This document shows, in pieces, positions 3,886 through 14,445 of a DNA stretch of 14,445 bases. Position 1 is the first letter of the stretch, and the number at the start of each line of letters is the position of its first letter. The stretch comes from a virus (Duplodnaviria > Heunggongvirae > Uroviricota > Caudoviricetes), in IMG/VR virus record IMGVR_UViG_2529292722_000020; one strand, 5' to 3'. Made by a program: the position numbers and the translations under genes. The notes under the pieces were generated by a model, which was given only the letters and a program-made list of their open reading frames with translations, made no database searches and was not told where the DNA came from.

Positions 3886-4536
3886 ATGAATACACAACTG
3901 ATGGGTGAGCGTATTCGCGCTCGCAGAAAAGAACTCAAGATTAGGCAGGCTGCCCTTGGCAAGATGGTTGGCGTGTCTAATGTTGCTATTTCCCAATGGG
4001 AGCGATCTGAAACTGAGCCCAATGGCGAAAACCTATTGGCCTTAGCCAAGGCTTTGCAGTGCTCCCCTGATTACCTGTTGAAAGGAGAGGATAGTCTTTC
4101 AAACATTGCCTATCACAGCAGGCATGATCCAAGAGGTTCGTATCCTCTAATTAGTTGGGTAAGCGCAGGATGTTGGATGGAAGCTGTAGAGCCATATCAT
4201 AGGCGTGCAATAGATAACTGGTACGACACAACGGTAGATTGTTCTGAAGACTCTTTTTGGCTCGACGTTAAAGGCGATTCAATGACTGCCCCGGCAGGAC
4301 TGAGTATTCCTGAGGGGATGATTATTCTCGTCGACCCAGAAGTCGAACCACGTAATGGAAAGCTGGTAGTCGCCAAACTTGAAGGGGAAAACGAGGCGAC
4401 ATTCAAAAAGTTAGTTATTGATGCCGGTAGAAAATTCCTGAAACCACTCAATCCACAATACCCAATGATTGAAATCAATGGGAACTGTAAAATCATTGGC
4501 GTTGTCGTTGATGCCAAGCTAGCAAACCTTCCTTAA
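3886..4536 (+). CDS. c2: Phage repressor, P22 c2 type (N-terminal HTH domain plus C-terminal LexA/S24-like autocleavage domain)
   Basis: 216 aa; N-terminus MNTQLMGERIRARRKELKIRQAALGKMVGVSNVAISQWERSETEPNGENLLALAKALQCSPDYLLKG matches remembered P22 c2; the C-terminal half has the GDSM...K serine-lysine dyad pattern. Confidence 0.9.
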   Translation: MNTQLMGERIRARRKELKIRQAALGKMVGVSNVAISQWERSETEPNGENLLALAKALQCSPDYLLKGEDSLSNIAYHSRHDPRGSYPLISWVSAGCWMEAVEPYHRRAIDNWYDTTVDCSEDSFWLDVKGDSMTAPAGLSIPEGMIILVDPEVEPRNGKLVVAKLEGENEATFKKLVIDAGRKFLKPLNPQYPMIEINGNCKIIGVVVDAKLANLP

Positions 4537-4556
4537 GGGGCTTTCGCCCCTTTTTT
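4537..4556 (+). terminator. Intrinsic terminator after the repressor gene
   Basis: GGGGC-TTTC-GCCCC hairpin followed by TTTTTT, immediately after the TAA at 4534-4536. Confidence 0.7.
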
Positions 4557-4599
4557 ATTTCCCGTTAAAAATCAAAGACAAACTAAATTCACGCCCATA

Positions 4600-4656
4600 A
4601 AATTAAGTTTTCTTCAAAAATGCACTTGACCAATAAATTAAGAAGTCTTAAATTTA
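4600..4656 (+). promoter_or_regulatory. PL promoter with overlapping OL operators
   Basis: -35 TTGACC (4626-4631), 17-bp spacer, -10 TAAATT (4649-4654); palindrome ATTAAGAAGTCTTAAAT (4637-4653) overlaps the promoter, with a degenerate second site near 4603-4616. Confidence 0.5.
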
Positions 4657-4699
4657 AGCCATCAGCAGGACGCTGGAAGCCAAACGGAACAGATTGGCA

Positions 4700-4740
4700 G
4701 GCTCTTTAACATCGACGGACTCTCAACCTAACCGTTGAGA
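4700..4740 (+). promoter_or_regulatory. Candidate nutL: boxA (GGCTCTTTAAC) plus boxB hairpin (7-bp stem, CUAACC loop)
   Basis: GCTCTTTAAC at 4701-4710 matches the boxA consensus; hairpin TCTCAAC-CTAACC-GTTGAGA at 4721-4740 has no following U-run, so it is not a terminator. Lies between PL and the N-like gene. Confidence 0.5.
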
Positions 4741-4850
4741 CCAGAACTTGAGTGGTTTTGGGGATGGCGCGAATTGCAGCTGCAAGACAGCGATCGAGAA
4801 GATAAGCACCTCGACGCGTCATGCGCCAAAGCCACTTAAAGGAGACCATC

Positions 4851-5156
4851 ATGGTAACCATTGTCTGGAAAGAATCCAAAGGTACGGCAAAAAGCCGCTA
4901 CAAAGCTCGCAGAGCAGAACTTATTGCCGAGCGACGCAGTAATGAAGCACTGGCGCGAAAAATTGCGCTAAAGCTCTCTGGTTGCGTCAGAGCAGACAAA
5001 GCAGCATCACTAGGAAGCCTTTGCTGCAAGAAGAAAGAAGAAGTCGTTCGAAAAAATAGAAGTATTTATTACAAAGATTCAAACCCGTTAGGAAACAAAA
5101 TTCATGCAGTCCAAAAAATAAAATTGTACAGTAAACTACCGTACGGTGCTTATTGA
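4851..5156 (+). CDS. N: N-like transcription antiterminator with arginine-rich motif (phage 21 N type)
   Basis: ATG at 4851 sits 7 nt after AAGGAG; the N-terminal GTAKSRYKARRAELIAERR matches the arginine-rich boxB-binding peptide I recall for phage 21 N; first gene downstream of PL and nutL. The track's upstream start at 4821 has no Shine-Dalgarno. Confidence 0.7.
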   Translation: MVTIVWKESKGTAKSRYKARRAELIAERRSNEALARKIALKLSGCVRADKAASLGSLCCKKKEEVVRKNRSIYYKDSNPLGNKIHAVQKIKLYSKLPYGAY

Positions 5157-6101: not shown

Positions 6102-6206
6102 TACGAGTAAGCACTGTGTATTCATTCCAACGAGTGAATACACGGAGCAATGTCGCTCGTAACTAAACAGGAGCCGACTTGTTCTGATTATTGGAAATCT
6201 TCTTTG

Positions 6207-6229
6207 CCCTCCGATGTGGGGGGCTTTTT
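6207..6229 (+). terminator. Intrinsic terminator closing the moron unit
   Basis: CCCTCC-GATGT-GGGGGG hairpin (one G-U pair) followed by CTTTTTA. Confidence 0.5.
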
Positions 6230-6295
6230 ATATGCATACCAATAACGCTTCACTCGAGGCGTTTTCGTTATGCAATCAAACAGAAGGAGCATCCT

Positions 6296-6720: not shown

Positions 6721-7428
6721 ATGGATTTGAATAAATTCGATGAGCCATTCAGCCCTGAAGATATCGAATGGCGAATACAGCAAAGCGGTAAAACACGCGA
6801 TGGCAAGGGGTGGGCTATGGTGCTGGCTTATGTCACGAACCGGGCAATCATGAAACGCCTGGACGATGTTTGCGGCAAAGCAGGATGGCGCAATGAATAC
6901 CGCGATATTCCCAACAACGGCGGCGTTGAATGCGGCATATCAATAAAGATTGATTCCGAATGGGTAACCAAATGGGATGCTGCTGAAAACACGCAGGTAG
7001 AAGCCGTCAAAGGTGGTCGTTCAGGTGCAATGAAGCGCGCTGCCGTTCAGTGGGGAATCGGTCGGTATCTGTATAACCTTGAGGAAGGTTTCGCACAAAC
7101 ATCTCTCGATAAAAAGCAGGGATGGCACAGGGCAAAACTCAAGGATGGAACAGGATTTTACTGGCTCCCTCCATCGCTGCCGGGATGGGCAATACCAGCA
7201 TCAGATAACAAACCATCACCAGAAAATACCAACCAGAAATCTCCATCGGTTGACTGCGAACAAATCCTGAAAGACTTCAGCGATTATGCGTCAACAGAAA
7301 CTGACAAGAAAAAACTCATCGAGCGTTATCAGCGTGACTGGCAATTAATGGCTGGCAACGAGGAGGCGCAGGCTAAATGCGTTCAGGTAATGAACATCAG
7401 AGTTAACGAACTAAAACAGGCGGCATAA
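6721..7428 (+). CDS. Rad52-family single-strand annealing protein (Sak-like recombinase)
   Basis: GAGGTGA Shine-Dalgarno before ATG 6721; AYVTNRAIMKRLDDVCGKAGW and GAMKRAAVQWGIGRYLYN match Rad52 N-domain patterns ([20 protein letters not shown] and KRALRSFGNALGN); occupies the bet position. Confidence 0.7.
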   Translation: MDLNKFDEPFSPEDIEWRIQQSGKTRDGKGWAMVLAYVTNRAIMKRLDDVCGKAGWRNEYRDIPNNGGVECGISIKIDSEWVTKWDAAENTQVEAVKGGRSGAMKRAAVQWGIGRYLYNLEEGFAQTSLDKKQGWHRAKLKDGTGFYWLPPSLPGWAIPASDNKPSPENTNQKSPSVDCEQILKDFSDYASTETDKKKLIERYQRDWQLMAGNEEAQAKCVQVMNIRVNELKQAA

Positions 7429-7896
7429 ATGTCTCACTTGGACGGAATTATTAAAAGATTCGAGTCCAGCTACAAAGTTAATGAAACAACAGGTTGCTGG
7501 GAGTCTACCTATTCAAAAAACAAAGGAGGATACACAAAATTTGTAGCCTTTGGCGTAACAATGCTTTCTCATCGGGTTGCTTTTGAGCTTTATCACTCCC
7601 CCATTCCATCTGGGAAGATGGTTTGCCACAAATGCGATAACCCATGCTGCGTTAATCCTGAACATCTCTTTTTAGGTAGCGCGCAAGAAAACATGGACGA
7701 CAAGATAGCAAAAGGAAGGCATCGTGGAGCCAAGAAAGGTCATGCTCATCATGGTGCAAAATTAACAGAGTGGCAGGGTATAGAAATTAGGAAAAGACTC
7801 TCTGAAAAAGAGAGTCAGTACAAGATAGCAAAAGACATGGGTGTATCTCAATCAATTATAAGCAACATAAAAACTGGCAAGAGGTGGAGCAAATGA
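7429..7896 (+). CDS. HNH homing-type endonuclease with C-terminal HTH
   Basis: HNH motif [26 protein letters not shown]; start abuts the SSAP stop (TAAATG); the end overlaps the SSB start. Confidence 0.8.
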
Positions 7897-8399
7897 GTTC
7901 TCGCGGGATAAATAAGGTGATTATCCTTGGTCGGGTAGGACAAGACCCGGAAGTTCGATACTCACCATCAGGAACAGCGTTCGCTAACCTGACAATAGCC
8001 ACGTCAGAACAATGGCGAGATAAAAATACTGGCGAGCAAAAGGAATTGACTGAATGGCATCGTGTTGCTGTATCCGGGAAACTGGCTGAGGTCGTGGGGC
8101 AGTATGTGAAAAAAGGTGATCAGATTTATTTCGAGGGAATGCTGAGAACCAGAAAATGGAAAGACCAGTCAGGGCAAGACCGTTACACAACCGAGGTTCA
8201 TGTCGGAATTAATGGCGTGATGCAAATGCTTGGCGGCATTGGCGACAGCAAACAACAAGCAGCCAGCAGGCAATCACAGAAGCCACAGCAGCAATCATCA
8301 CCAGCACAACACAACGAACCTCCGATGGATTTTGACGACGATATACCCTTTGCACCAGTAACTCTCCCCTTCCCTCGTCACGCTATTCACGCAATTTAA
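7893..8399 (+). CDS. ssb: Single-stranded DNA-binding protein SSB, with a 15-aa extension after the DDDIPF tail
   Basis: [23 protein letters not shown]...TEWHRVAV...[11 protein letters not shown] closely resembles E. coli SSB; GAGGTG Shine-Dalgarno 6 nt before ATG 7893. Confidence 0.9.
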
Positions 8400-8407
8400 G
8401 GACTTAC

Positions 8408-8956
8408 ATGAATCACTTAATGGTTGACCTTGAAACAATGGGCAACGGGCCATACGCGCCAGTTATTTCTATTGGGGCGGTATTCTTTGACCCGAATACC
8501 GGAGAAACAGGAGAAGAGTTCTCGGTAAATATCTCGCTTGAGTCATCAATGCGATATCGGGCGCGTCCTGACGCTTCAACGATTTTATGGTGGATGGAAC
8601 AGAGTGAAGAAGCCAGAAAATCGCTAACCAGCAACACTCAAGAGCTTTCAACAGCTCTTTCATGGTTATCTGAATTCATCATAAAGAACGCTAACCACAA
8701 ATTCGTTCAGGTTTGGGGGAATGGAGCATCATTTGACTGCGTTATTCTCCGCAACAGTTATTCGCTGACAGGGCAGCCAGTTCCGTGGCAGTGGTGGAAT
8801 GACCGCGACGTAAGAACAATCGTCGAGCTTGGAAAGGTAATAGGATTCGACCCTAAGCGAGATATGCCATTCAAAGGAACTCGCCACAACGCGCTTGATG
8901 ATGCCATCCACCAAGCCAAATACGTTTCAGCGATCTGGAAAAAGTTAGCTAAATAA
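8408..8956 (+). CDS. DnaQ-like (DEDDh) 3'-5' exonuclease
   Basis: Exo I motif MVDLETMG and Exo III motif HNALDDAIHQAKY; sits in the phage recombination module. Confidence 0.7.
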   Translation: MNHLMVDLETMGNGPYAPVISIGAVFFDPNTGETGEEFSVNISLESSMRYRARPDASTILWWMEQSEEARKSLTSNTQELSTALSWLSEFIIKNANHKFVQVWGNGASFDCVILRNSYSLTGQPVPWQWWNDRDVRTIVELGKVIGFDPKRDMPFKGTRHNALDDAIHQAKYVSAIWKKLAK

Positions 8957-8972
8957 TCAACCGGAGAAAAAC

Positions 8973-9266
8973 ATGCCAGCGCCTTTGTATGGTGCGGATG
9001 ACCCGCGCCGCTGTTCCGGCAATTCTGTATCGGAGGTGCTGGATAAATTCAGAAAAAACTACGATCGAATAATGTCTCTACCGCAGGAAACGAAAGAGGA
9101 AAAGGAATTTCGCCACTGTATATGGCTTGCAGAGAAAGAAGAACGCGAGCGAATTTACCAGACATCAATCCGACCATTCCGCAAAGCCACATATACCCAC
9201 TTCCCTGAAATTGACCCGCGCCTGCGTCATTACCGCTCACGCTATGGCGCTATCAGTAATGACTGA
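8973..9266 (+). CDS. Hypothetical protein (97 aa)
   Basis: ORF with a GGAGA Shine-Dalgarno; no family recognised. Confidence 0.5.
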   Translation: MPAPLYGADDPRRCSGNSVSEVLDKFRKNYDRIMSLPQETKEEKEFRHCIWLAEKEERERIYQTSIRPFRKATYTHFPEIDPRLRHYRSRYGAISND

Positions 9267-9277
9267 GGAATTAACAA

Positions 9278-9567
9278 TGAAAACAAAGAAGCTAAACATC
9301 GACATCGGCAAATACGTTATTACCGGAACCAAACACGATCTGATTCTTAGCGAAAGAGGAATTATCAAAGAAGGCGAGAATGCAGGGAAAGAAACACTAA
9401 GTCGTATCGGTTATTACAGCAAGTTTGAGCATCTGGTCAAAGAGTTATGCAACCGTGAAATCCTGTTATCTCAGGCGCAGACGCTACAGGATATTCAGCA
9501 GCATATCGATACTTTAGGTGTATCACTTAGCATGGCTGTTGACCAGTTCATGGAGAGTAAATCATGA
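9278..9567 (+). CDS. Hypothetical protein (96 aa)
   Basis: Start taken at ATG 9278 behind a GAGG Shine-Dalgarno rather than the track's upstream start at 9127; no family recognised. Confidence 0.5.
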
Positions 9568-9731
9568 GAGGACTTGCATACAATCCCGGCATTCTTCCGG
9601 CAGAAATGATTATTCGCCAACGCGTAAAGCCAATGCCATCGAGAGAGGAATTGCTTAAGAGAAATGGTTTCGGTTCTGTTAATGACAACAAATATCTGAA
9701 TGCGATGTGGCGCAAAGGAGGCAACCAGTGA
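9564..9731 (+). CDS. Hypothetical small protein (55 aa)
   Basis: ATG overlaps the upstream stop (ATGA); found by manual translation. Confidence 0.4.
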
Positions 9732-9880
9732 GTAACCGTTTTTACATGATGTGCTTGCGTGAAACTGTAGGTGATAACGCCTCATTCCATTGCCATAACG
9801 GCAATGAGCATGGCGAGATGGCTATGAAGCATGGAAAACGCCTGTCGAAGTATATTGTGATGAGTGGGGTGGGTGAATGA
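9728..9880 (+). CDS. Hypothetical small Cys/His-containing protein (50 aa)
   Basis: GTG 9728 sits 6 nt after AAAGGAGG and overlaps the upstream stop (GTGA); its own stop overlaps the methyltransferase start (ATGA). Confidence 0.4.
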
Positions 9881-10605
9881 TTTGCCTTCACAACGCAGAC
9901 TGCTTTGACATCTTTCCGCAAATCGCCAGCAACTCCGTAGATCTTGTATGTGCCGATATTCCATATGGAACAACTCGGTGTCGCTGGGATTCTGTTCTCG
10001 ACCTGCAGTTGATGTGGAAGCAGATTTACCGTATTTCCAAACCGAACGCTGCAATTGTTCTGTTTTCCGCTCAGCCTTTTACCAGCGTGCTGGTCAACAG
10101 CAATCTTCGTGACTGGAAAACAGAATGGATTTGGGAAAAGCCACACGCGACAGGATTTTTGAACGCAAAAAAACAACCTTTAAGAGCGCATGAAAATATT
10201 GAAGTTTTTTACAGAAAGCAACCGACATACAACCCACAGATGACGTATGGGAACGCCAGAAAAACCTCAACAAGAGGTAGGCTGAATACTGATGTATATG
10301 GCGATGCGCTGAAAAAGGTCGTTTACGATTCAACAAGTCGCTATCCGAGAGACGTGCAGAAATTCTCCAGCGACAAGCAAAAGCAGGCACTTCATTCAAC
10401 ACAAAAGCCACTGGCTCTGGTGAGATATCTGATTGAAACATATAGCAATATTGGCGACACAGTGTTGGATTTCACTATGGGTAGCGGAACTACTGGCGTT
10501 GCGTGCCAACAATCAGGACGCCGATTTACAGGAATAGAAAAAGATCCAGAAATTTTTCGTATCGCATTAGAGCGTATGGGAATTAAACAGGAGCATGCAG
10601 CATGA
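9877..10605 (+). CDS. Orphan DNA methyltransferase, beta class (N6-adenine or N4-cytosine)
   Basis: Motif IV-like DIPY (CADIPYG) near the N-terminus and motif I FTMGSGTTG near the C-terminus, the beta-class order; no adjacent restriction endonuclease. Confidence 0.8.
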   Translation: MICLHNADCFDIFPQIASNSVDLVCADIPYGTTRCRWDSVLDLQLMWKQIYRISKPNAAIVLFSAQPFTSVLVNSNLRDWKTEWIWEKPHATGFLNAKKQPLRAHENIEVFYRKQPTYNPQMTYGNARKTSTRGRLNTDVYGDALKKVVYDSTSRYPRDVQKFSSDKQKQALHSTQKPLALVRYLIETYSNIGDTVLDFTMGSGTTGVACQQSGRRFTGIEKDPEIFRIALERMGIKQEHAA

Positions 10606-10623
10606 TTTTTGTGGAGGCAACCA

Positions 10624-11010
10624 GTGAGCGAAATTAATTACCAGGCACTGCGTGAGGCGGCGGAACGTGCAATTCCAGCAATGGAACGCCTGTTAATGTT
10701 GCCAGCTGATGATGATTTGTTAAGTGAACAGGAACTTAAAGATTACGGTGTGGATATTGATGCGCTCAACGCCTTCAAATTTCTGGCCGGACCAGAAACC
10801 GTGCTGGCGCTGCTGGATGAGCTGGAAGCCAAAGACAAGCGGATTGCTGACATGGATGCGCGGGAGGTTGTACTGCCGCGTGCGCACGATGTTCACCCAT
10901 TAGGGCCGCAGTCGGCGAAAATTTTTTGTGAGTTTCACCGGAGTATCGTGAACAGATGCGCCGATGAGATTCGCAAGGTTGGCGTCAAAGTCAGCATCAA
11001 GGGGAATTAG
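10624..11010 (+). CDS. Ead/Ea22-like family protein (about 128 aa)
   Basis: GTG 10624 sits 6 nt after GGAGG; N-terminus SEINYQALREAAERA and PETVLALLDELEAKDKRIA coiled-coil segment resemble Ea22-like prophage proteins as I recall them. Confidence 0.5.
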   Translation: MSEINYQALREAAERAIPAMERLLMLPADDDLLSEQELKDYGVDIDALNAFKFLAGPETVLALLDELEAKDKRIADMDAREVVLPRAHDVHPLGPQSAKIFCEFHRSIVNRCADEIRKVGVKVSIKGN

Positions 11011-11015
11011 GGATA

Positions 11016-11806
11016 TGGCTGAACTAACCAAAGAATGGCTGAAGCAAACTATCGCTCAATACGAAGCCAATCGTGATGAATTACCGTTTGGACTGGATAC
11101 CAACAGTGCCATTGAGCTTCAGGCGTTCAAGTTGGCGCTGGCATCGCTGGAAGCAGAACCAGTTGCTTATATTTTCAAACATCCGGCTGGAAAATTATTC
11201 TGGGCTTTAACGGATGAAAGCAATAAAGAGCAATCGGACGTTATTCCTGTTTATGCCGCCCCTCCAGTGCCAGTAGTACCTGCTGCATTACCTGAGAACG
11301 ACGATGAGGACGGGCATGACATTGATTATCTTGAGCCATCTGAAGTTTACTCGCTTGGGCGAACAGCTGGCTGGAACGCCTGCCGTGCTGCCATGCTTCA
11401 TGGTGCCGAACCTGTAAGCCAAACTTACAAGTTGCCTCCCCTGTCATCCAGAGAAGTAAACGACGCGGCATGGAAATTACACAACATGCTGACTGAACAC
11501 GGCCCTCTAAATGGGTGTCAGTTCAACAATTTGAAAGAGTGCTTCTATGAGGCATTAAAGGTCGCAATGCGCAACTATCCGGTAACTCCGGATGGTTGGA
11601 TAAGCTGTAGTGAGCGAATGCCGAACGATAAACAGTATGTTTGGTGTTGGGGTAAGTCTTACGGCTGGACTGAGTGCAATACCTTCGAAGGGTATTACGA
11701 TTGGTCGAGAAACAAATGGTGGGCAGTTACTGACGATGGGGAAGAACCGGCATCGAAAGTAACTCACTGGATGCCTCTACCAGAACCGCCTCAGGAGGTG
11801 AAGTAA
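11016..11806 (+). CDS. Ea22-like protein with C-terminal DUF551-like domain
   Basis: ATG 11016; C-terminal WxW-rich segment ending WMPLPEPP is the pattern I associate with DUF551. Confidence 0.6.
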
Positions 11807-12084
11807 TGGACTCCTTCGCGAAATATACAATTATTGACTGGATAGCCTTCCTTCAGGTTTTGCTCATCTGGTTTTATATGGCTTACAGGAGTGGACAGTG
11901 GATTGTCAGTGTAGCCTGTAGCAAGGGATGGCGTTGGTGGAACAGAAAGAATAAAAAAGCACTGGCATTGGATTCGTTTTACGAAGCATTCAATCTTAAC
12001 AGCCTTCAGCCTGGTTCTGTCATTGTAGTCACCACTCAAAGCGGCATGACCATTCAGATTCATAAACCAAAAGAGGAAAAATGA
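11806..12084 (+). CDS. Hypothetical protein with hydrophobic N-terminal segment (92 aa)
   Basis: AGGAGGTG Shine-Dalgarno inside the upstream gene's 3' end; ATG overlaps the upstream TAA. Confidence 0.45.
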   Translation: MDSFAKYTIIDWIAFLQVLLIWFYMAYRSGQWIVSVACSKGWRWWNRKNKKALALDSFYEAFNLNSLQPGSVIVVTTQSGMTIQIHKPKEEK

Positions 12085-12170: not shown

Positions 12171-12242
12171 CAATCCTCGCACTCGCGGGGATTTCTTTTA
12201 TCTGAACTCGCTACGGCGGGTTTTGTTTTATGGAGATGATAA

Positions 12243-12410
12243 ATGCACTTCCGAGTCACAGGTGAATGGAATGGAGAGCCATTCGACAGGGTCGTCGAAG
12301 CAGAGGGCATCAACGACTGCTATAACCACTGGATGATATGGGCGCAGATAGCGCATGCAGACGTAACCAATATTCGAATTGAAGAACTGAAAGAACACCA
12401 AGCCGCCTGA
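12243..12410 (+). CDS. Hypothetical small protein (55 aa)
   Basis: GGAG Shine-Dalgarno 7 nt before ATG 12243; followed directly by an intrinsic terminator. Confidence 0.35.
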   Translation: MHFRVTGEWNGEPFDRVVEAEGINDCYNHWMIWAQIAHADVTNIRIEELKEHQAA

Positions 12411-12422
12411 TGGCGGTTTTTT
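12403..12422 (+). terminator. Intrinsic terminator
   Basis: CCGCC-TGAT-GGCGG hairpin followed by TTTTTT. Confidence 0.65.
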
Positions 12423-12432
12423 ATTGCCTGAT

Positions 12433-12448
12433 TTGCAGGTTCGATTCC
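12433..12448 (+). other. tRNA-derived fragment matching the T-arm of tRNA-Arg argW (att-site remnant)
   Basis: TTGCAGGTTCGATTCC carries the GGTTCGATTCC T-loop signature and matches the argW segment as I recall it; flanks do not continue the tRNA. Confidence 0.5.
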
Positions 12449-12467
12449 CTATTCGGAGATAGCACTC

Positions 12468-12668
12468 ATGCAACACGAACTACAGCCTGATTCACTGGTT
12501 GATTTGAAATTCATCATGGCCGATACTGGCTTTGGTAAAACCTTCATCTACGACCGGATTAAGTCCGGCGACCTGCCAAAAGCCAAAGTTATCCACGGGC
12601 GAGCAAGATGGTTATATCGTGACCATTGTGAATTCAAAAATAAGCTCTTAAGCCGCGCCAATGGGTAA
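12468..12668 (+). CDS. AlpA/Xis-family excisionase-like DNA-binding protein
   Basis: 66 aa with winged-helix pattern ...MADTGFGKTFIYDRIKSGDLPKAKVIHGRARWLYRDHCEF...; sits at the integration-proximal end of the prophage. Confidence 0.7.
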   Translation: MQHELQPDSLVDLKFIMADTGFGKTFIYDRIKSGDLPKAKVIHGRARWLYRDHCEFKNKLLSRANG

Positions 12669-12741
12669 AATAGCGGGTAAAATATTTCTCACATCTAAAA
12701 AACACCATTCTAATCAATCCCCTGCCGCGTCAAGTAGATGT

Positions 12742-12756
12742 CTGCAGGGGACACCA
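12742..12756 (+). other. 3'-terminal fragment of tRNA-Arg argW (acceptor 3' strand plus CCA); host side of the attachment junction
   Basis: CTGCAGGGGACACCA matches the argW 3' end as I recall it; it is the direct continuation of the fragment at 12433-12448. Confidence 0.55.
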
Positions 12757-13197
12757 GATACCCTTCAAACGAAATCTACCTTCACCCCGTAAAAGATGGG
12801 TTTGGCAGCACACTTGCCTTATATCTACTCATTTTTACTGCAACAGGTTGAAATCTCAGCACTGTCAGAAAGCGCTGATGACTAAACAGCCCTGGGCCGG
12901 GCGATGTAACCATCACACAGAATCCTGATAGCGAAATATGGCGTGACTCGATACTTCACTCCGCAATGCATTCCTTGATGAATTCGCAGGACCGTGATAC
13001 ACGGGACAGGTCACTGAATGACGACAATGTCCTGGAAATCAGCGAACCGCGCATCTGAAGTACATTTGAGCGACTGTACCAGAACATGAATGAGGCGTTT
13101 GGATTAGGCGATTATTAGCAGGGCTAAGCATTTTACTATTATTATTTTCCGGTTGAGGGATATAGAGCTATCGACAACAACCGGAAAAAGTTTACGT

Positions 13198-14445
13198 CTA
13201 TATTGCTGAAGGTACAGGCGTTTCCATAACTATTTGCTCGCGTTTTTTACTCAAGAAGAAAATGCCAAATAGCAACATCAGGCAGACAATACCCGAAATT
13301 GCGAAGAAAACTGTCTGGTAGCCTGCGTGGTCAAAGAGTATCCCAGTCGGCGTTGAAAGCAGCACAATCCCAAGCGAACTGGCAATTTGAAAACCAATCA
13401 GAAAGATCGTCGACGACAGGCGCTTATCAAAGTTTGCCACGCTGTATTTGAAGACGGATATGACACAAAGTGGAACCTCAATGGCATGTAACAACTTCAC
13501 TAATGAAATAATCCAGGGGTTAACGAACAGCGCGCAGGAAAGGATACGCAACGCCATAATCACAACTCCGATAAGTAATGCATTTTTTGGCCCTACCCGA
13601 TTCACAAAGAAAGGAATAATCGCCATGCACAGCGCTTCGAGTACCACCTGGAATGAGTTGAGATAACCATACAGGCGCGTTCCTACATCGTGTGATTCGA
13701 ATAAACCTGCATAAAAGACAGGAAAAAGTTGTTGATCAAAAATGTTATAGAAAGACCACGTCCCCACAATAAATATGACGAAAACCCAGAAGTTTCGATC
13801 CTTGAAAACTGCGATAAAATCCTCTTTTTTTACCCCTCCCGCATCTGCCGCTACGCACTGGTGATCCTTATCTTTAAAACGCATGTTGATCATCATAAAT
13901 ACAGCGCCAAATAGCGAGACCAACCAGAAGTTGATATGGGGACTGATACTAAAAAATATGCCGGCAAAGAACGCGCCAATAGCATAGCCAAAAGATCCCC
14001 AGGCGCGCGCTGTTCCATATTCGAAATGAAAATTTCGCGCCATTTTTTCGGTGAAGCTATCAAGCAAACCGCATCCCGCCAGATACCCCAAGCCAAAAAA
14101 TAGCGCCCCCAGAATTAGACCTACAGAAAAATTGCTTTGCAGTAACGGTTCATAAACGTAAATCATAAACGGTCCGGTCAAGACCAGGATGAAACTCATA
14201 CACCAGATGAGCGGTTTCTTCAGACCGAGTTTATCCTGAACGATGCCGTAGAACATCATAAATAGAATGCTGGTAAACTGGTTGACCGAATAAAGTGTAC
14301 CTAATTCCGTCCCTGTCAACCCTAGATGTCCTTTCAGCCAAATAGCGTATAACGACCACCACAGCGACCAGGAAATAAAAAAGAGAAATGAGTAACTGGA
14401 TGCAAAACGATAGTACGCATTTCTGAATGGAATATTCAGTGCCAT
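13198..14445 (-). CDS. cscB: Sucrose:H+ symporter CscB (LacY-family oligosaccharide permease)
   Basis: 415-aa multi-transmembrane protein; N-terminus MALNIPFRNAYYRFASSYSFLFFISWSLWW matches my recollection of E. coli CscB. The window ends exactly on its start codon. Confidence 0.85.
   Translation of the reverse strand: MALNIPFRNAYYRFASSYSFLFFISWSLWWSLYAIWLKGHLGLTGTELGTLYSVNQFTSILFMMFYGIVQDKLGLKKPLIWCMSFILVLTGPFMIYVYEPLLQSNFSVGLILGALFFGLGYLAGCGLLDSFTEKMARNFHFEYGTARAWGSFGYAIGAFFAGIFFSISPHINFWLVSLFGAVFMMINMRFKDKDHQCVAADAGGVKKEDFIAVFKDRNFWVFVIFIVGTWSFYNIFDQQLFPVFYAGLFESHDVGTRLYGYLNSFQVVLEALCMAIIPFFVNRVGPKNALLIGVVIMALRILSCALFVNPWIISLVKLLHAIEVPLCVISVFKYSVANFDKRLSSTIFLIGFQIASSLGIVLLSTPTGILFDHAGYQTVFFAISGIVCLMLLFGIFFLSKKREQIVMETPVPSAI

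Follow-up and report, generated by a model that had tools for sequence, protein, structure and literature searches.

Two described phage systems are closely related to the locus considered here. Genes 28 to 21 of Shigella phage Sf6, with a layout that HK620 and P22-like phages also show, encode, in this order, an annealase, a single-stranded DNA-binding protein (ssb), a nuclease, Abc2 (gene 25), a DUF5405 protein (gene 24), a DUF2737 protein (gene 23), the product of a variable gene and an Ea22-like protein, and the Abc2 protein of phage P22 is known to bind RecC (PMC9836394). The same gene order was found in a stretch of 14,445 nucleotides from a virus of the Caudoviricetes (IMG/VR record IMGVR_UViG_2529292722_000020), the whole of which is referred to below as the window. 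Its segment from 8973 to 10605 had been described in an original prediction as a chain of five translationally coupled open reading frames (ORFs), ending in an orphan methyltransferase and forming a possible anti-restriction, self-protection or modification-dependent system. The DNA identity to Sf6 amounts to 95% across 8954-9733, which comprises abc2, gene 24 and gene 23, and these genes are separated by the same 10-nt gap and the same 4-nt overlaps in both sequences. However, the slot that is occupied in Sf6 by an unrelated 99-amino-acid gene 22 holds a short ORF (ORF4) and the methyltransferase gene in the window, which also differs from Sf6 by an extra HNH gene and by a DEDDh exonuclease that replaces Sf6 gene 26. 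Our analysis indicates that the segment is very probably an ordinary mosaic part of an early-left operon, in which an orphan phage methyltransferase has come to occupy a gene-swap slot, and not a dedicated five-gene system.

The window is approximately 99.9-100% identical to the chromosome of Escherichia coli ETEC-2264 and to two other strains, and the RefSeq and Pfam annotation reveals a lambdoid prophage that has the csc sucrose genes as neighbours. On the minus strand, a DnaB-like helicase, a 296-amino-acid gene at the replication-gene position, cII and cro were identified. The plus strand carries a LexA/cI-type repressor gene (3886-4536), followed by a long run of genes that starts with a weakly matching N-like protein and ends with DUF4752 and then TorI/excisionase. 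This run lies downstream of the immunity region, is co-oriented with the repressor gene and leads from recombination genes through to xis and att, as is typical of an early-left operon. From this gene content and order, the region can be assigned to the early-left (PL-type) operon of a P22/Sf6/HK620-like lambdoid E. coli prophage, which, by analogy with such phages, would very probably be transcribed from PL upon induction and be silent in the lysogen. An assignment to a P2-like prophage was dropped after cI, cro, cII, abc2, Ea22 and torI had been identified.

All five ORFs are annotated as coding sequences in RefSeq, and the three 4-nt stop/start overlaps of the original prediction are present (ATGA at 9564, GTGA at 9728 and ATGA at 9877), with a Shine-Dalgarno-like sequence at each overlapped start (GGAGAG, AAGGAGG and a weak GGTGGG). 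These overlaps link ORF2 to the methyltransferase gene but do not make a chain of all five genes, as abc2 and ORF2 are separated by a 10-nt gap that contains a Shine-Dalgarno sequence (GAGGA) of its own. The start of ORF2 is at 9277 and not at 9278 as proposed, a position from which five stop codons are met. Overlaps of 4 nt would provide the sequence prerequisites of translational coupling; joints as compact as these are also usual in phage operons and at swap sites of this kind. Close packing was found to span 12 genes, namely, those for the Rad52-like annealase, HNH, ssb, the DEDDh exonuclease, Abc2, DUF5405, DUF2737, ORF4, the methyltransferase, Ea22-like, DUF551 and DUF4752, with successive junction gaps of 0, -4, 8, 16, 10, -4, -4, -4, 18, 4 and -1 nt, and a fourth ATGA overlap is located at 7893, upstream of the five-gene stretch. 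A simple sequence scan detected no promoter-like site on the plus strand between 6496 and 13115, and terminator-like hairpins at 6206-6263 and 12172-12223 lie on either side of the 12-gene unit. Since the genes are co-oriented and tightly packed and have no internal plus-strand promoter-like site, their co-transcription is likely, which agrees with the co-expression that had been proposed. However, packing and overlaps continue over 12 genes and are therefore a property of the whole operon, so that the natural unit is the long operon, of which the five-gene chain is an arbitrary slice and not a separate functional module. No RNA genes were found across the whole window, either with Rfam at gathering thresholds or in a tRNA scan, and the opposite-strand ORFs over the region had no family match. 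The coordinates of all features are compiled in Table 1.

Table 1. Features of the methyltransferase cassette and the surrounding operon, with positions counted from the first nucleotide of the window
Feature	Position	Strand	Length	Remarks
abc2	8973..9266	+	97 aa	Anti-RecBCD protein 2; RefSeq name 'phage anti-RecBCD protein'
ORF2, DUF5405 protein	9277..9567	+	96 aa	Sf6 gene 24 homologue
ORF3, DUF2737 protein	9564..9731	+	55 aa	Sf6 gene 23 homologue
ORF4, chimeric frameshifted remnant	9728..9880	+	50 aa	Ends on the methyltransferase start codon
Orphan beta-class DNA amino-methyltransferase	9877..10605	+	242 aa	
Motif IV, D27-I28-P29-Y30 (GAT ATT CCA TAT)	9955..9966	+		Aligns to DPPY of M.MboIIA and the DpnA-type methyltransferase
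Motif I region, L-D-F-T-M-G-S-G-T-T	10465..10494	+		Residues 197-206; S-adenosylmethionine (AdoMet) binding
Boundary repeat copy 1, GGAGGCAACCAGTGAG	9717..9732	+		Shine-Dalgarno sequence, 6 nt and GTG start of ORF4; includes the DUF2737 stop
Boundary repeat copy 2, GGAGGCAACCAGTGAG	10613..10628	+		Shine-Dalgarno sequence and GTG start of the Ea22-like gene at 10624
Co-packed unit, 12 early-left operon genes	6721..12084	+		Junction gaps, families, Sf6 synteny (genes 28-21)

The distribution of these genes is mosaic. Among 5,426 complete E. coli genomes, to which all genome counts given here refer, the whole five-gene stretch is present in three. The trio of abc2, DUF5405 and DUF2737 occurs in 185 genomes, where it is followed by DUF7446, DUF7739, a 214-amino-acid gene or others, and the methyltransferase allele of the window occurs in 18 genomes, with 12 of the copies on plasmids that are P1-like in the contexts examined. 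The clearest case of independent movement is provided by the P1-like phage JL22, in which a stretch of 1.1 kb is 99.6% identical to positions 9717-10827 of the window (4001-5111 of the compared JL22 stretch). The homology begins exactly at 9717 and comprises the leader ORF, the methyltransferase gene and the 5' part of the Ea22-like gene, and the JL22 copy is located among pmg, pap, Ea22 and EaA genes. Identity at this level indicates a recent exchange between two unrelated temperate phage types. More distant relatives are found in further settings: a Klebsiella prophage has an 87% identical methyltransferase after an HTH_ParB gene and an unrelated 203-amino-acid gene, and the gene for an 83% identical enzyme of Salmonella belongs to the nin region, with an Ea22-like gene on one side and NinB on the other.

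The borders of the mobile segment are marked by a perfect 16-nt direct repeat, GGAGGCAACCAGTGAG, two copies of which flank the 896-bp stretch of ORF4 and methyltransferase gene, as compared with a chance expectation of 0.02 matches even when two mismatches are allowed. The 16-mer, which was defined from this window and six related loci, heads successive accessory genes in JL22 and in the P1-like plasmids with 0-2 mismatches, and, within the same limits, also heads Sf6 gene 22 and the 214-amino-acid genes of the HS and DH5alpha prophages. From these sequence comparisons, ORF4 and the methyltransferase gene can be regarded as a mobile cassette and the slot after DUF2737 as a swap site. As the first repeat copy spans the start of ORF4, the GTGA overlap at 9728 is part of the swap joint.

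ORF4 is a chimeric recombination and deletion scar rather than a conserved protein, and at most a leader ORF. Its codons 1-26 are the 5' end of the 214-amino-acid phrog_2457 gene, and about 250 E. coli records contain a match to its first 79 nt, which in those records start that gene. The latter occupies the same slot after DUF2737, as exemplified by the HS and DH5alpha prophages, and when the window is compared with these two prophages, the homology is lost after 9806 and returns at 10632, inside the Ea22-like gene. The P1-like plasmids possess a 62-amino-acid form of the leader, the C-terminal half of which is derived from a conserved 58-amino-acid family of the ea region that is found, for example, in phages vB_EcoS-689R5 and ArgO145. 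Relative to this form, the window and phage JL22 share a 40-nt deletion with its joint at 9806/9807, which shifts the frame, so that the last 24 residues of the 50-amino-acid ORF4 are out of frame relative to the 58-amino-acid family. Both the 50- and the 62-amino-acid forms are common in public data, and a third leader of 22 amino acids, found in the E94 prophage, has only the last 21 nt before the methyltransferase start in common with the window. Since ORF4 exists in two frames and is replaced by a third leader elsewhere, no protein sequence is conserved at the leader position. In all four contexts seen, the upstream ORF stops 0-4 nt from the methyltransferase ATG; such a stop codon fits translational coupling, and it fits ordinary phage compactness as well. 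The possibility that ORF4 is an internally deleted copy of the 203-amino-acid gene that precedes the Klebsiella methyltransferase was discarded, as the sequences are unrelated.

The other three small proteins, which like ORF4 had been considered to have no recognizable family, all match known ones. The ORF1 product is Abc2: it matches PF11043 over its full length (residues 1-97 of 97, 212 bits versus a cut-off of 25, E = 9e-64) and phrog_656 ('abc2 anti-RecBCD'). It also aligns full length with P22 Abc2, the structure of which has been solved in complex with RecBCD (PDB 8b1t; see also 8b1u), with about 91% identity to 8b1t over 97 of 97 residues (E = 4e-58) and conservation of Pro68. Judging from this identity, it should be a bona fide anti-host-nuclease protein that would bind RecC and alter RecBCD. 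In a difference from P22, the partner annealase belongs to the Rad52/Rad22 family (PF04098 in Pfam), and no abc1 homologue was identified upstream of abc2, where HNH, ssb and exonuclease genes occupy its place. ORF2 encodes a DUF5405 protein (PF17399, 24.1 bits versus a cut-off of 21.6), and its homologue, gene 24, is described in the Sf6 record as resembling P2 Orf83. In phrog_154, DUF5405 is labelled 'replication initiation protein', which was rejected as an annotation artefact, as neither Pfam nor NCBIfam nor structure lends it any support. ORF3 encodes a DUF2737 protein (PF10930, E = 1e-29), of which the homologous gene 23 is noted as HK620 HKaI-like in the Sf6 record and which shares a 90% cluster with HK97 Gp38. 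All homologues of DUF2737 are at least 68% identical, and its AlphaFold2 model was unusable (predicted local distance difference test score of 65, predicted template modelling score of 0.24).

The methyltransferase matches PF01555 (N6_N4_Mtase) with 103 bits versus a cut-off of 26.7 over residues 21-231 of 242, as well as phrog_67 (E = 3e-70) and the PADLOC model MTase_II (E = 4e-73). Beta-class enzymes are defined by the motif order IV, target recognition domain (TRD) and I (PMC7544214). This order is found here, with DIPY at residues 27-30, followed by the TRD and by GSGTT at residues 202-206, so that the predicted class is borne out; a Dam-type (alpha-class) enzyme is not indicated, as the Pfam hits consist only of PF01555 and a sub-threshold match to AviRa and the motif order is that of the beta class. 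The consensus of motif IV is (D/N/S)-P-P-(Y/F/W), and that of motif I is FxGxG, in which the Phe contacts the adenine of AdoMet (PMC7544214). With Ile at its second position, motif IV of the enzyme does not literally match the former, but the D, P and Y are present. DIPY had been presented as an oddity of this gene. It is instead the normal motif IV of its subfamily: of 120 homologues with identities of 73% or more, 114 have it, and DVPY or DTPY takes its place in the others. A more distant set of 150 representatives of 50% clusters, which are 39-59% identical to the query, contained 83 sequences with DLPY, 41 with DPPY, 6 with DIPY, 4 with DMPY and 2 with DVPY. Position 28 is thus L, P, I, M or V, whereas D27, P29 and Y30 are 93-99% conserved.

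Motif I presents a similar picture. It reads D-F-T-M-G-S-G, compared with the canonical D-P-F-x-G-S-G, with Thr at the position of the Phe. In the same 150 representatives, D198, G202, S203 and G204 are 88-99% conserved, and D198, G202 and G204 are 93-99% conserved. Only 5 of the aligned sequences (the query and the 150 representatives) retain the DPF triplet, the commonest triplets are DNT, DFT and DNC, and Thr or Cys is usual at the Phe position in this subfamily. The textbook DPPY and DPF-GSG signatures are thus systematically replaced in it by D-(L/I/M/V)-P-Y and D-x-(T/C)-x-G-S-G. Because the non-canonical residues are shared across a conserved subfamily, they are a subfamily trait under selection and not a sign of decay. 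The family is very large and mostly phage-borne: about 2,000 cluster representatives match at E<=1e-30, and it occurs on about 400 phage records with hosts from many bacterial groups.

Among the explanations that differ from a mosaic operon segment, the one closest to the original prediction holds that the five genes are a co-adapted, stoichiometrically coupled module, in which the small proteins would assist the methyltransferase as partners, determine its specificity or regulate it. Three consecutive 4-nt overlaps joining ORF2, ORF3, ORF4 and the methyltransferase gene speak in its favour, as do the proximity of an upstream stop to the methyltransferase ATG in every context examined and the predicted activity of Abc2 itself against a host nuclease. 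Yet it is very improbable, given that the complete combination is so rare, that the methyltransferase is missing from 182 of the 185 genomes in which the trio occurs, and that 13 of the 18 methyltransferase copies (12 on plasmids and that of PK8241) have none of the three small genes nearby. The two copies of E94 and E92 lack DUF5405 and have a frameshifted DUF2737. ORF4, with its two frames and its replacement by a third leader, offers no conserved protein as a partner, Sf6 has the same overlaps with an unrelated gene in the methyltransferase slot, and overlaps and tight gaps extend through 12 genes. With the trio followed by other genes elsewhere and the methyltransferase travelling independently, the five genes do not constitute one module.

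Scans of the five proteins and their neighbours with PADLOC and NCBIfam revealed no restriction endonuclease or defence-system protein and returned only generic methyltransferase models and the homing HNH. No cognate endonuclease adjoins the methyltransferase, the neighbours of which are DUF2737 and ORF4 upstream and Ea22-like, DUF551 and DUF4752 downstream. The orphan status that had been noted is hence confirmed within the genes scanned, and in the defence scan of the neighbours nothing points to a modification-dependent system. That the enzyme is one half of an unrecognized restriction-modification or modification-dependent system, with a neighbour such as Ea22-like, DUF551 or HNH as the nuclease, is extremely unlikely: the HNH gene situated 2 kb upstream (7429-7896) encodes an endonuclease of the homing type HNH_3 (PADLOC 'HEase'), and this gene, an insertion when compared with Sf6, shows no linkage to the methyltransferase elsewhere. 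An Ea22-like gene follows the methyltransferase gene in the E. coli and Klebsiella contexts, but such genes are ubiquitous in this region even where the methyltransferase is missing, the one in Salmonella is upstream of the methyltransferase gene and not after it, and no PADLOC defence model matches any neighbour. A decayed, inactive relic, in which the Pro-to-Ile replacement in motif IV and the loss of the motif I Phe abolish catalysis, would be compatible with the published consensus of motif IV and with the contact that the motif I Phe makes with AdoMet (PMC7544214), and the IS100 insertion just left of the window suggests that some decay of the prophage is under way. This explanation is nonetheless decidedly unlikely. 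The methyltransferase ORF is uninterrupted, most of the 150 representatives have D-aliphatic-P-Y, and the 93-99% conservation of the catalytic D, P and Y and of the GxG indicates purifying selection; moreover, the same allele, at DNA identities of at least 99.6%, is found in P1-like phage-plasmids and in the sequenced phage JL22. Activity with an aliphatic residue in place of the first motif IV Pro is documented for the rRNA adenine-N6 methyltransferases Erm (NIPY) and KsgA/DIMT1 (NLPY) (PMC9386465, PMC8463865). As they belong to another class and act on RNA, they are an analogy for the chemistry only and imply no family homology. A recent methyltransferase classification lists rare variants such as NLPY among characterized DNA methyltransferases. 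A main function as a Dam- or CcrM-like epigenetic regulator of phage or host expression or of replication timing, instead of anti-restriction, is also unlikely. The regulatory roles of these two orphan enzymes (PMC7544214) and the position of the gene in an early operon with DNA-metabolism genes speak for it, whereas the sporadic, cassette-like spread among unrelated phage types (18 of the 5,426 genomes; lambdoid PL, lambdoid nin and P1-like contexts) favours a benefit that is portable and independent of context over wiring into the regulation of a single phage, and repression of the operon is to be expected in the lysogen, judging from the cI-type repressor. For none of these four explanations is there positive support beyond adjacency.

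Several observations weigh against parts of the interpretation as a mosaic operon segment with an active, protective methyltransferase. The N-like assignment is weak (PF25694, 18 bits versus a cut-off of 27.9), and PL was placed on the basis of synteny and of two promoter-like sites at 4575-4654. Motifs IV and I both deviate from the textbook consensus, and even the best solved relatives of the enzyme are matched at only E = 1e-14. No biochemically characterized member of this exact subfamily was found, and a literature search on DIPY/DLPY methyltransferases gave no papers. The preference for N6-adenine over N4-cytosine is inferred solely from the Asp of motif IV, and transcription from PL, methyltransferase activity, base specificity and the anti-restriction role are all deduced here from sequence. 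The sequence comparisons directly show the gene identities, the operon context and synteny, the mosaic distribution, the cassette borders, the origin of ORF4 and the conservation of the motifs. Finally, DUF5405 and DUF2737 may have a role linked to Abc2, as 185 genomes have kept the trio together as a unit.

On the favoured interpretation, an ordinary operon segment with an exchangeable methyltransferase cassette, induction or infection would cause the operon to be read as one long transcript. This transcript would carry the recombination genes (for the Rad52-like annealase, SSB and the exonuclease), the RecBCD-hijacking Abc2, DUF5405 and DUF2737 and, after the latter, a variable set of accessory 'ea' genes, the swap slot being filled in this case by the 896-bp cassette with ORF4 as a presumably non-functional leader remnant and the orphan methyltransferase. 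The enzyme, which from its conservation is probably active and adenine-specific, most likely as an N6-adenine methyltransferase, would be produced at an early stage of lytic growth and act on the replicating phage DNA, and methylated progeny could then escape restriction systems with the same target sequence. Catalysis depends on the side chain of the Asp, a carbonyl group of the main chain and stacking by the Tyr, and an aliphatic residue at the second position of motif IV should therefore be tolerated, as in Erm and KsgA/DIMT1.

Anti-restriction or self-protection, which had been suggested for the chain as a whole, is the most plausible role of the orphan methyltransferase, and Abc2 would also act against a host nuclease, but this role does not extend to a module of five genes. 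From the general biology of phage orphan methyltransferases and the portable distribution of the gene, it can be held with moderate confidence that the enzyme protects progeny DNA from restriction. More speculatively, the D-aliphatic-P-Y subfamily might share an unusual property, for example, a relaxed or very short recognition sequence or activity on replicating or single-stranded DNA. Likewise, because an upstream stop abuts the methyltransferase ATG in all four contexts seen, expression of the enzyme might be throttled by obligatory termination and reinitiation from a throw-away leader ORF. Such scenarios are, however, unlikely.

Further observations concern the prophage and the variability of the slot. 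The homology to Sf6 runs through torI/xis and ends at the annotated Sf6 attP core (window regions of about 12359-12757 and 12468-12668), which places the end of the prophage, the att site, near 12742-12757. The torI/xis genes and the att core are at the operon end in Sf6 as in this prophage. The att end is located just before cscB (13198-14445, minus strand), and there is no integrase at this end; in KplE1/HK620-type prophages, int and xis end up at opposite prophage ends. An IS100 element (IS21 family) carrying istA and istB interrupts the prophage between its replication genes and its nin genes, to the left of the window and overlapping its positions 1-222. It adjoins a truncated HNH pseudogene, and the prophage may be defective. 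The HNH_3 homing-type endonuclease at 7429-7896, between the Rad52-like annealase and ssb, has a C-terminal helix-turn-helix; Sf6 homology halts at 7431 and resumes at 7909, that is, across the HNH insertion, and the gene has a gap of 0 to the annealase stop and an ATGA overlap with the ssb start. E. coli E94 carries a sister prophage at the same csc-side site, in which abc2 is present, DUF2737 is frameshifted and DUF5405 is missing. Its methyltransferase has 253 amino acids, with a C terminus that is 11 residues longer and overlaps the Ea22-like gene, so that the slot appears fluid. The methyltransferase stretch 9877-10605 is 99.9% identical in ETEC-2264 (NZ_CP023349.1), so that the window probably derives from a sister strain rather than from ETEC-2264. 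The protein of the window corresponds exactly to WP_032267735.1, seen on only two contigs, and a commoner allele of the same cluster (ATB14406.1 and others) is present on 237 contigs.

In terms of significance, every gene of the segment is already annotated in public records, its architecture matches that of the annotated Sf6 record, and its mosaicism is of the textbook lambdoid type. Mildly new are the dominance of D-aliphatic-P-Y in the subfamily and the cassette that is bounded by a 16-nt repeat and shared with P1-like phage-plasmids. The locus illustrates that stop/start overlaps in phage operons are no sign of a functional partnership, as they coincide with conserved gene-swap joints. It also shows clearly how a single methyltransferase cassette, 99.6% identical in the two settings, has passed between a lambdoid prophage and P1-like phage-plasmids. 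Since D-aliphatic-P-Y is the norm in a large and apparently uncharacterized phage methyltransferase subfamily, motif-based annotation should not call this motif degenerate, and the characterization of one member would give a result that can be transferred to thousands of phage genes.

Parallels exist between the enzyme and the beta-class methyltransferases of known structure. By sequence, its relatives in the PDB are M.MboIIA (1g60), the Helicobacter pylori DpnA-type methyltransferase (5hek and 5hfj), M.RsrI and CcrM, at E values of 1e-14 to 2e-10. These enzymes, as well as 8urk and 9c3u, have the same motif order, and the HxTQKP and GSGTT blocks are conserved; M.MboIIA and 8urk align with it over the full length, with DIPY opposite DPPY. 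In contrast to it, all of them possess DPPY, and their TRD is not confidently alignable at these E values. As the TRD has no reliable alignment to an enzyme of known specificity, no specificity can be transferred. M.EcoGII and M.EcoGI of E. coli O104:H4 are likewise prophage-borne orphan beta-class methyltransferases, in their case for adenine, for which silence in the lysogen and a protective effect on phage DNA are presumed (PMC5778455). M.EcoGII differs in having 349 amino acids and a canonical DPPY, compared with 242 amino acids and DIPY for the enzyme of the window. The cassette borders, in turn, resemble the 'boundary sequences' (bsq) of lambdoid phages, which are also short conserved sequences at gene starts that flank exchangeable genes. 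The likeness is one of position, as the Sf6 record places bsq3 at the start of the Ea22-like gene, which is equivalent to the location of the second repeat copy in the window.

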